Below are positions 36,001 through 39,000 of a stretch of 60,442 bases of DNA, in pieces. The DNA is from a virus (taxonomy: Duplodnaviria; Heunggongvirae; Uroviricota; Caudoviricetes). The DNA is taken from IMG/VR virus record IMGVR_UViG_2660238269_000009; one strand, given 5' to 3'. Numbering within the stretch: the stretch's first letter is position 1; each line of letters starts with the position of its first letter. The position numbers are program-made.

Positions 36001-39000
36001 TCCAGAAATACGTTGTGTCCCCGCAAATCCACGGTACCGCTGATGCGCTGCCTCCTGTGCTCTGTGATGCCAGACCGGCAAGCTCCGTTCTGAACTGATT
36101 CACCATCGCACTAAACAGCCCCGGATGCTGCGCATGCGTCCCCACTGCCGCATCACCTTCTCCCTGCATCCACACCACCGCAAGCAGACGGTTTTTCGGG
36201 TTCTTCGCCAGTGCGGCTTTAGTCCGGCTCACCAAATCCTGATACAGCGGCTTACCCACACCCCAGCGCAGTGAATTTTCCGATGCACCGGCTGATTCGC
36301 TGTATGTGCCGTCTGCACCCGTTGTGAATGCCGAAGCACCACGGCAGCACGGAACCAGCAGAATGCCCGCATTCGCCGGTATAAACGGCAGCAGTTTTTT
36401 GGCGATATGCAGCCCCTGCCCCACGGTTCCGTACTGCCCCTTTGACAGGTCCGCTTTCGGATGGTTAAGACGGCTCATGTCCTGCACATCATGCAGACAA
36501 TGGTCCGCCGGAATAATGTCGTTATACTTACAGGCGGCACCGCCCGGTGTCACCGTACTGCGGCGCGCCAGCTGCTTAATACGCGGGTCCGGACGGTCAT
36601 ATGTCTCCGGCAGCGGAAGGCCTTCACCATACGACATGCCGTTTGACTGCCCTGCCAGAACCACAACAAAGTAATACTCCGGGTCGCTGGTGGCGCTGAT
36701 TACTGTGCCTTCTCCATCCGACGGCTTCACCACCACAGGTGTGGTGACATCACCTTCCGCCGCAATGGCCTGCATCAGGGTATAAGGCGTGATGGCGACA
36801 GGGCTGCCAAATGGCTGCCACCCCTCCTTCAGTTTTTGAGTCAGTCGCTCCGCAAGGTCTGACGGCGACGCCGCCCTGACCACATCGTAGTGTTTAAATG
36901 CCATGGTTCTTTCCACCATATTAAAAACAATTCTTTAAAATACCTGACATGCAATACAGAAAAAAAACACAAAACCATACCTTAAATGAAAACCTCATCA
37001 TAAAGCAGGTATGCATGGATAAACCACATCAGAAAAATAATTCTGCTCTATGGTTTACATTCAAAATTATCATTTATACTTTTCAGAACATCACCAGCAC
37101 AGCATAAATAAGGAGGCTAAATGAAGTGGATTGTGATTGATACAGTTATCCAGCCATCATGCGGAATATCTTTTTCAGCCATATGGAGTAAAATAAAATT
37201 AATAATCTGGTATCAATCGGATGTTTTCTTACCTCCTGAAAGTATATTTACGTTGACTCACACAGGTATCGTACTTAATAACAAAGTGCTACCTGTAACC
37301 ATTTACAACGTTGTACCATTCAATAAAAGATTCTGGGATTTAATCAAAAACAGCCAGGAATGTCCTGCAAATTCAGATAACGTATTGAAAGAATGCTTTA
37401 ATAATCATTGCATTCTGCAAATATGCCCTTACGGACTAAAACAACAGTGTCCATAATTAGTTTACTCATATCTTACAAAATTCATATAAAAGCCCCTCCG
37501 GAGAGGGGCTAAAGCCGCGTATCTGTATCATCATGCGCATGATGCCGGGTGCCTCCCGGTGAGTTCAGCCCGGTGCCACCAAACCCGCGCGTTTACTTTC
37601 CTGGGTATCAAAGATAACACCTAATGCACCAGTCGCCCCTCCGCTCAGGGGGATTCACCATGCCTGTTTCTTTTAACAAACTCCCCGCAAAACAGACAAC
37701 TGTCAACCGTCTGAATTGTGAGACATTTAAAATTTTCGGGGCATGACTGATACCCGGCTAACTACCTGGCATGTCCTTTTTCACCAAAGGAAAAAGCACC
37801 ACCACAATACCGACCACCAGCACTCCATCCGCCAGCACCGACATGATCCTGCTGGTGAAATCCACCATCACCACCAGAAACAGCAGGAGTGCCACAGCGG
37901 CCAGACGCAGTTTTACCGTCACAGGTGGTTCTCCAGTCGCAGGCCAAGAACACCAGCAATCTCTTCCAGAACCTTACGCTCTTCCGGCTCAATTTCACCA
38001 TCTGCTTCAGCAATGGCCACCGCCACATCCAGCACATCTTCCGCTTCACGCGTATCGTGTTTCACATCTTCAATTTCACGCAACGCCGCTCGACGACCAA
38101 TTTTAAAGTTGGTGTCAAGCTGACCTGTGATCGTGGCACTGATGGCATTAATTTCTGACGTAAACGCGGACAACGCAGGCTGGTTACGTAATACCTGTTC
38201 GATCTTCGCTTTCTCTGAAGCCTCACATTCACCATCTGCATAGGCCACCAGATAGGCAGCATTAATAACCGCCTGTGCCAGATCACGTTTCTCAAACTTT
38301 TTAATTTCCGCTGCCGCTCTGCGGGTTTTCTTTTTGAAAATACCAAACATCGTGACGTTCCTTTGGGTGGGTGAGCCAACGCCCGGGAGCGATCTGCCCA
38401 CAGAGAAAGTCACACTGACCACTCCGTAAGCTCCCCCCGAAAGGCTCTGTGGTTGATATGCGCCGGGCGTGGCGCGGAAATAAAAAAGGCTCGCAGTAGC
38501 GAGCCCCAGAAACAACAAAAATACAGTGAAAACTAAAGAGGGCCGCAGAGCAACCCTTTTTTAGTTAAAATAGATGGTAAAAAACGATTCCAGTGAATTT
38601 ATTTACACTTATTGTCAGAAAAAAGGGAAACCACCGATTCCTGACTGATCATTTCTTCTTCGCTCACCCTGGTAATTGCAACTAAATCCTGAAGAGGCAG
38701 ACCAAAAACATCCAACAATTCTTTTTTCAAAAGAATTCCATTCTCATGCAATAAGTTGATTAACTTATAGATGAATTGTGGCTCCTCTTTTGCAATCACA
38801 TCATCAAGAGGCTCACGGCGACGATATGGTGCTAATTGCCTAAAGACATAACTTTTTTGATTCTCTGTCATAAGGCTTAACGAATAAGCTCGATGCGTCA
38901 TACAGGCCAAAGAAACTAACCATCTCTCCTTCAGTCTTTTGAGTGCAGATATATTGGGAGAGTAATATTCCCTTCCAAAGGTTTGAGCTGGAAGCAAAAA

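Follow-up and report, generated by a model that had tools for sequence, protein, structure and literature searches.

The DNA analyzed here, IMG/VR virus record IMGVR_UViG_2660238269_000009 (60,442 nucleotides; its full length is called the window below), is a complete lambdoid prophage integrated beside ompW, and we describe a small plus-strand gene at 37121-37456 that by its sequence belongs to the iraL lineage of the IraM/IraL/RssC family of anti-adaptor proteins. In the open reading frame (ORF) list of the window the gene is intact, with 111 codons plus stop, and its ATG lies 4 nt downstream of the Shine-Dalgarno sequence AAGGAGG (37110-37116, plus strand), which was located in the window sequence and by alignment with uropathogenic Escherichia coli CFT073 and is stronger and more consensus-like than the AAGGAAA of CFT073 iraL. 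The GC content of the ORF is 0.342 (0.333 at third codon positions) and that of the 200 nt upstream 0.299, compared to 0.566 for the flanking nanS-p-like esterase gene (34937-36919, minus strand), 0.486 for the flanking TerB-like gene (37919-38350, minus strand), and 0.511 for the whole window. The product contains six cysteines (positions 14, 81, 92, 97, 102, and 110), five of them within the last 31 residues. The original prediction, made from the sequence of the window alone, had described a real ORF with a near-consensus ribosome-binding site, a very AT-rich composition unlike that of the nanS-like and TerB-like flanks, and a cysteine-rich C-terminus, all of which is confirmed. That this is the only plus-strand ORF of the late region, as had also been claimed, is true of a stretch of around 15 kb (window positions ~31.5-46.3 kb) and not beyond: The nearest annotated plus-strand genes are YlcI/YnfO, around 5.6 kb to the left of iraL, and an IS421 transposase around 9 kb to the right.

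The encoded protein matches NF007393, the NCBIfam model of the IraM/IraL/RssC family, with 161.1 bits over model positions 1-112 of 114 (curated cutoff 121 bits), and the ratio of nonsynonymous to synonymous substitution rates (dN/dS) is 0.25 against CFT073 iraL and 0.18 against iraM of E. coli K-12. These ratios point to purifying selection on the protein and, together with the NCBIfam match, argue that the ORF has not arisen by chance. Placement in the family depended on NCBIfam because an hmmscan of the protein against Pfam-A gave no match even at E<=10. CFT073 IraL is of equal length and identical at 100 of 111 residues (90%), whereas K-12 IraM, which is 4 residues shorter, shares 67 of 107 (63%). 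A published criterion for iraL demands that the complete coding sequence be at least 95% identical to that of CFT073 iraL at the nucleotide level (PMC4045071), and the window gene misses this value with 93.5%; given the amino acid identities to the two reference proteins, we therefore regard it as a divergent iraL allele by tree position that falls just outside the cutoff of that paper. Eleven substitutions lead from the window protein to CFT073 IraL (A20V, V35A, V51M, R70T, D73N, A83T, S85T, K90N, H96R, I98T, and C110S), the last of which sets the sixth cysteine of the window allele, C110, against S110 of CFT073. An identical protein is annotated in RefSeq as "anti-adapter protein IraM" (WP_021574136.1), and the feature is thus an allele of a characterized, already annotated gene and an ordinary, described kind of lysogenic-conversion gene.

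Remote-homology and structure prediction, by which the original prediction had proposed to identify the product, both led to IraM. The sole relative by sequence in the PDB is the segment of IraM residues 1-78 crystallized with RssB (8TWD; E=6.6e-33), and an AlphaFold2 (AF2) model of the window protein predicts a beta-barrel plus helix for the N-terminal domain (residues 1-80) with predicted local distance difference test (pLDDT) values of 80-95. In Foldseek, this model aligned to 8twd_A with E=4.4e-9, a target-normalized template modeling (TM) score of 0.90, and a root-mean-square deviation of 1.2 Å over 78 columns. Fifteen IraM residues contact RssB in the 8TWD complex (PMC10844676), and in an alignment with K-12 IraM 11 of these are identical in the window protein (I4, I6, C14, F18, W22, K26, W30, I42, I61, Y62, and P66) while the remaining four are conservatively changed (T13S, H63N, I64V, and L75I); the 11 differences from CFT073 IraL all lie outside the contact positions. 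The functions of the two reference proteins are documented: IraM binds RssB, stabilizes sigma-S, and alters the phosphorylation of RssB (PMC10844676), and IraL is recovered together with RssB on purification and increases the level of sigma-S in CFT073 and Shigella sonnei, with an effect on sigma-S stability shown in CFT073, where the effect on sigma-S was seen in log phase and from the native promoter (PMC4045071).

The same fold could instead belong to a retargeted PmrD-like connector, i.e., a protein whose partner would be a response regulator other than RssB (such as PmrA or a regulator of the phage) and whose effect would be on the phosphorylation of that partner instead of on sigma-S turnover. 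PmrD structures were indeed retrieved by Foldseek with target-normalized TM scores of 0.70-0.73 (4hn7 scoring 0.73), the homologues of the window protein carry precomputed matches to PF11183 (PmrD), and IraM itself changes RssB phosphorylation. We nevertheless consider such a retargeting very unlikely, because the protein has 14% identity to PmrD versus 90% to the RssB-binding IraL, its RssB-contact residues are conserved, and PmrD lacks the cysteine tail. PmrD (4HN7, 2JSO, and 2RQX; 14-19% identity to the window protein) shares the beta-barrel plus helix and is, like IraM and IraL, a small binder of receiver domains, but it targets PmrA and protects the phosphorylated regulator, whereas IraM and IraL target RssB and block the adaptor (PMC10844676).

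The expression signals of the gene can be placed by comparison with CFT073, where the 5' end of iraL mRNA was mapped by RACE (rapid amplification of cDNA ends) in log phase to ACATCACCAGCAAGGCATAAACAAGGAAACCA (PMC4045071). This exact string was absent from the first five iraL-type loci that we compared, which a later alignment with CFT073 itself explained: The window sequence opposite the CFT073 RACE end is ACATCACCAGCACAGCATAAATAAGGAGGCTA, the window reading ACATCACCAGCACAG... in this alignment, and over the 60 nt upstream the two sequences hardly differ. By homology to the mapped CFT073 end (ACATCACCAGCAAGG...), the transcript of the window allele would begin around 37088, at A37088, with a predicted 5' untranslated region (UTR) at 37088-37120 and a putative sigma-70 promoter at 37054-37080, both on the plus strand. 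The promoter consists of a -10 element TATACT at 37075-37080, 7 nt before the start, and a candidate -35 element TTTACA at 37054-37059, separated by a spacer of 15 bp. Its segment 37054-37080 differs by one base from CFT073 and is identical in strain STEC1590; over the core promoter from -35 through +1, two bases differ from CFT073 and none from STEC1590. A generic promoter scan missed this homology-supported promoter because it allowed only spacers of 16-18 bp; its sole call, an internal site at 37172-37199, was disregarded.

Regulation through PhoPQ and Mg2+ of the kind known from iraM was considered and rejected. A search for the PhoP box (T/G)GTTTA-N5-(T/G)GTTTA with up to 2 mismatches gave no match within 25621-40501, and the 12 matches in the whole window compare to 12.65 expected by chance; a single GGTTTA half-site overlaps the candidate -35 element. 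The lack of a PhoP-box-like site near the promoter fits the stress-independent expression of IraL. In addition, the upstream region of K-12 iraM gave no alignment with the upstream region of the window gene.

Farther upstream the window allele has a deletion of 45-46 bp relative to CFT073, with its junction at 37017-37030 (plus strand) as placed by alignments, i.e., around -63 relative to the predicted start. The lost segment (approximately -63 to -108) is kept by every other allele compared, namely those of CFT073, STEC1590, and three further iraL loci. In a survey of 5426 complete E. coli genomes, only two matched the iraL-locus query over its full length in one alignment free of gaps. This deletion bears on the possibility that an IraL-type protein is encoded here by a silent or decaying gene, shut off by H-NS or crippled by the 46-bp loss, which would contribute nothing to the lysogen. 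The rarity of the deletion (2/5426 genomes), the GC content of 0.30 of the promoter region, and a candidate -35 element with a 15-bp spacer that the scan did not call would all suit such a gene, but the ORF is intact with a dN/dS of 0.25 against CFT073, the core promoter is that of STEC1590 and only two bases away from that of CFT073, the Shine-Dalgarno sequence is stronger than that of the expressed CFT073 allele, and the latter is expressed in log phase despite a similar AT content. We therefore judge a silent gene to be improbable.

Downstream of iraL, 34 nt past the stop codon, positions 37491-37510 form a perfect hairpin of an 8-bp stem and a 4-nt loop, which the predicted fold also shows. 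The hairpin is the 3' terminator of a gene for the small RNA (sRNA) STnc100, which runs convergently with iraL from 37692 to 37480 on the minus strand and matches Rfam RF02076 over all of its model positions (1-206 of 206) with 139.4 bits (gathering threshold 47). A T-run adjoins the hairpin on the minus strand only, and a terminator scan assigned the site to that strand. We rejected the hairpin as an intrinsic terminator of iraL itself, as there is no U-tract on the plus strand and Rfam gives it to STnc100; it may at most be weakly bidirectional. The perfect hairpin that the original prediction had seen after the gene therefore exists, but it is part of STnc100 and offers no evidence for an independent iraL unit. 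STnc100 is known as a sRNA of prophages that occurs downstream of stx2; it runs toward iraL in five of five other iraL loci and adjoins stxB in a Shiga toxin (Stx) 2a phage.

Based on homology and on the modeled structure, we consider it highly probable that this iraL allele makes an RssB anti-adaptor that would protect RpoS (sigma-S) from ClpXP in the lysogen. Judging by the homology of its promoter to that of CFT073, the lysogen would transcribe iraL from its own sigma-70 promoter, against the direction of Q-dependent late transcription, and would translate it from the near-consensus Shine-Dalgarno sequence. The PmrD-like beta-barrel of the N-terminal domain would then bind the response-regulator-like adaptor RssB, as suggested by the 90% identity to IraL and the kept 8TWD contacts. 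RssB would no longer hand sigma-S to ClpXP, and sigma-S should, by analogy to the results with CFT073 IraL, be stable even in growing cells. The RpoS regulon would be raised as a consequence, which may increase the general stress resistance of the lysogen. A lysogen of this prophage probably holds more sigma-S while growing, and in E. coli there is a link between higher sigma-S and tolerance to acid, oxidative, and osmotic stress.

Several points weigh against the assignment of an active RssB anti-adaptor. For the window allele itself, every step past similarity in sequence and predicted structure is inferred, from its expression through the binding of RssB to the effect on sigma-S. The Pfam-A hmmscan found no match for the protein, though all of its close homologues in the protein database carry a precomputed PF11183 match. 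In two-hybrid assays, IraL bound only RssB's N-terminal domain while IraM bound both RssB domains, so the interface seen in 8TWD may not transfer fully. At 15 bp, the spacer of the candidate -35 element is suboptimal, and the promoter was missed by the generic scan. The upstream deletion falls inside the fragment that served for complementation in CFT073 (-100..+33; PMC4045071), so regulation or promoter strength could differ, and the region of around 30% GC could be silenced by H-NS in the host. The independently expressed lysogenic-conversion gene that had been proposed in the original prediction is supported by homology, i.e., by the 90% identity to CFT073 IraL and the aligned promoter, but has lost the hairpin as part of its unit. 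With this correction the original interpretation is partly supported, and its basic view of iraL as a horizontally acquired, independently transcribed prophage cargo gene that would change lysogen physiology stands.

The C-terminal tail of the protein has a conserved motif, C81-P82-x9-C92-x4-C97-x3-I-C102-P103 (37361-37429, plus strand), which may form a metal- or redox-binding element. C81, C92, C97, and C102 occur without exception in 18 Escherichia sequences and are present in 43-44 of 45 family sequences with identities down to 20% (mostly representatives of 50%-identity clusters, aligned with MAFFT), and in this alignment each of the four is either invariant or conserved to 90% or more; W72, P12, W30, and P103 are other highly conserved positions. 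In the AF2 models the tail has no confident fold, with pLDDT values of around 40-55 (~40 with an alignment of 16 sequences and ~50 with the one of 45). The tail of IraM was removed before crystallography as proteolytically unstable and was termed less conserved and flexible (PMC10844676). Contrary to this description of a poorly conserved tail, its cysteines are nearly invariant across Enterobacteriaceae, and the four-cysteine motif ranks with the best-conserved portions of these proteins even though it was discarded in structural work. A search of the key IraM literature for cysteine or zinc returned nothing on the C-terminal tail.

It is a speculative idea, and one that we hold to be rather unlikely, that the four proline-flanked cysteines (C81-x10-C92-x4-C97-x4-C102) form a metal- or redox-dependent module controlling the stability or activity of the anti-adaptor, and that the gene together with the always-adjacent, convergent STnc100 makes up a conserved module of the stx slot that tunes host RpoS. 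If this reading of the cysteine tail were true, IraM/IraL-type proteins would be sensors and not passive plugs of RssB. Another RNA of Stx phages, StxS, activates rpoS translation (PMC7547250).

The original prediction had named a lack of conservation beyond this element, along with a lack of expression in lysogens, as what would refute it; conservation is evident from the 5426 E. coli genomes and from at least eight other enterobacterial genera. E. coli 2013C-3181 and N51 match a 601-nt stretch with iraL at 100% identity, and it occurs at 90% or higher identity in 1446 of the 5426 genomes, where the gene is always annotated as "anti-adapter protein IraM". Most genomes with the locus match at 90-95% nucleotide identity; the group of the window allele (at least 95%) is rare, with around 20/5426 genomes, several of which bear strain names of Shiga toxin-producing E. 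coli (STEC), while the CFT073-type iraL group comprises around 1426. STEC1590 encodes a protein identical to that of the window. A profile search against 1.8 billion cluster representatives additionally found full-length homologues annotated as IraM in Citrobacter, Salmonella, Enterobacter, Klebsiella, Cronobacter, Kosakonia, Intestinirhabdus, and Dryocola.

Among characterized systems, the closest is CFT073 iraL, named by Hryckowian et al. 2014 (PMC4045071), with which the window allele has in common the promoter, the RACE-mapped start, and the UTR as well as the lambdoid-prophage position and orientation between the Q/tRNAs/DUF3927 side and the DUF1737/holin side, with a convergent STnc100. 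The two differ in the 45-46 bp that the window lacks upstream of the promoter and in their neighbors, as the window has a full nanS-p esterase gene, TerB, and Rosmer. K-12 IraM (YcgW/ElbA, b1160; 8TWD) is alike in the PmrD-like fold and the four C-terminal cysteines, but its gene lies just outside the annotated e14 prophage and not in a cargo slot of a late region. IraM-like ORFs of Stx2c and Stx2a phages (1717, 2851, and Stx2a_WGPS2) occupy the same slot between STnc100 and nanS-p in the same orientation and share 72-74% identity and the cysteine motif with the window protein, but they form a separate lineage of 107 residues, sit directly downstream of stx2AB, and are frequently unannotated. 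We know of no experimental characterization of this lineage.

A tblastn search returned IraM-like ORFs from 46 phage records, with an identity of 60-80% in 41 of these; the records are mostly Stx2c and Stx2a phages of O157:H7, and many of the ORFs are unannotated. One example is Stx2a phage WGPS2 (NC_049941.1), in which an apparently "empty" gap of 575 bp between STnc100 and nanS-p contains an unannotated IraM/IraL-family ORF of 107 codons at 6991-7314 of the locus (plus strand), directly 3' of stx2AB. The iraL allele of the window is one more case of temperate phages carrying regulators of the general stress response of their hosts. Its practical value is corrective, in that the gene is known and has a RefSeq annotation and the hairpin is part of a sRNA that is likewise known. 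The four-cysteine motif is a small lead, and so are the IraM-like genes that directly adjoin stx2, often without annotation, in many Stx2 phages of O157.

The genes around iraL lie on the minus strand in the order Q, PemK-like toxin, methyltransferase, tRNA Ile/Arg/Arg, two small ORFs, RmrT, RmrA, TerB, DUF3927, and STnc100 and then, past iraL (itself on the opposite strand), nanS-p, DUF1378, DUF826, holin, and lysozyme. The slot of iraL, between the Q/methyltransferase/tRNA side and nanS-p/holin, is where Stx phages carry stx, and the gene is opposed to late transcription. The same slot and orientation are seen in CFT073, the induced phage vB_EcoS-640R1, and three other genomes, and in a Stx2a phage this frame recurs but holds stx2AB instead of the Rosmer/TerB cargo. 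When the window is compared with STEC1590 and Stx2a phage WGPS2, the segment 37758-41353 from tRNA Ile/Arg/Arg to nanS-p stands out as a variable cargo slot, which holds stx2AB in Stx phages, TerB and DUF3927 alone in STEC1590, and Rosmer, two small ORFs, TerB, and DUF3927 in the window.

The Rosmer anti-phage pair RmrT/RmrA was identified by PADLOC at 38599-40354 on the minus strand. RmrT is encoded at 39749-40354 (E=2.1e-17), whereas RmrA is split into a helix-turn-helix ORF at 39414-39749 and an M78-peptidase ORF at 38599-39390 (E=1.5e-73 for the latter), both also on the minus strand. This split results from a T-run near 39456 that is 1 nt shorter than in NZ_CP027312.1 and may be a frameshift or a sequencing error.

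Given this neighborhood, iraL might be a gene of superinfection exclusion or anti-phage defense, as the original prediction had offered as one possibility. Its cargo slot adjoins a bona fide defense system, and its transcription would be independent of the late genes. However, no family of PADLOC-DB matched the iraL ORF at E<=0.01, while the neighboring ORFs were readily recognized as RmrA and RmrT, and the ORF bears no resemblance to any exclusion protein. The IraM/IraL family has a demonstrated and different function, and the homologue iraM, on the K-12 chromosome just outside the annotated e14, acts in host stress signaling. This part of the original prediction finds no support, and we regard a defense function as extremely unlikely compared to that of an RssB anti-adaptor.

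Over 40.6 kb, the window is 99.96% identical to E. coli 2013C-3181 (NZ_CP027312.1), with 11 mismatches and 4 indels. Positions 1-17260 lack two IS66-family insertions of NZ_CP027312.1, and the tail-fiber region is around 1-1.5% divergent, which shows that 2013C-3181 itself is not the source of the window. A full-length ompC-like porin gene at ~15490-16650 (minus strand; 15492-16646 in the compared annotated locus) lies amid tail genes, between that of minor tail protein L and another tail protein gene, which is an unusual position for cargo. Off-diagonal blastn matches revealed direct repeats with a period of 162 bp and 88-97% identity at 23866-24632, inside a 2.7-kb coding sequence annotated as portal protein. 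Within ~43700-50800 there are two genes of the antiterminator Q family, with RusA, DUF968, an IS421 pseudogene, hokD/sok, and three hypothetical plus-strand genes between them, and the first Q is closely followed, on its downstream side, by a gene for a PemK/MazF-type toxin. Such an arrangement in one prophage suggests a mosaic or a tandem remnant.

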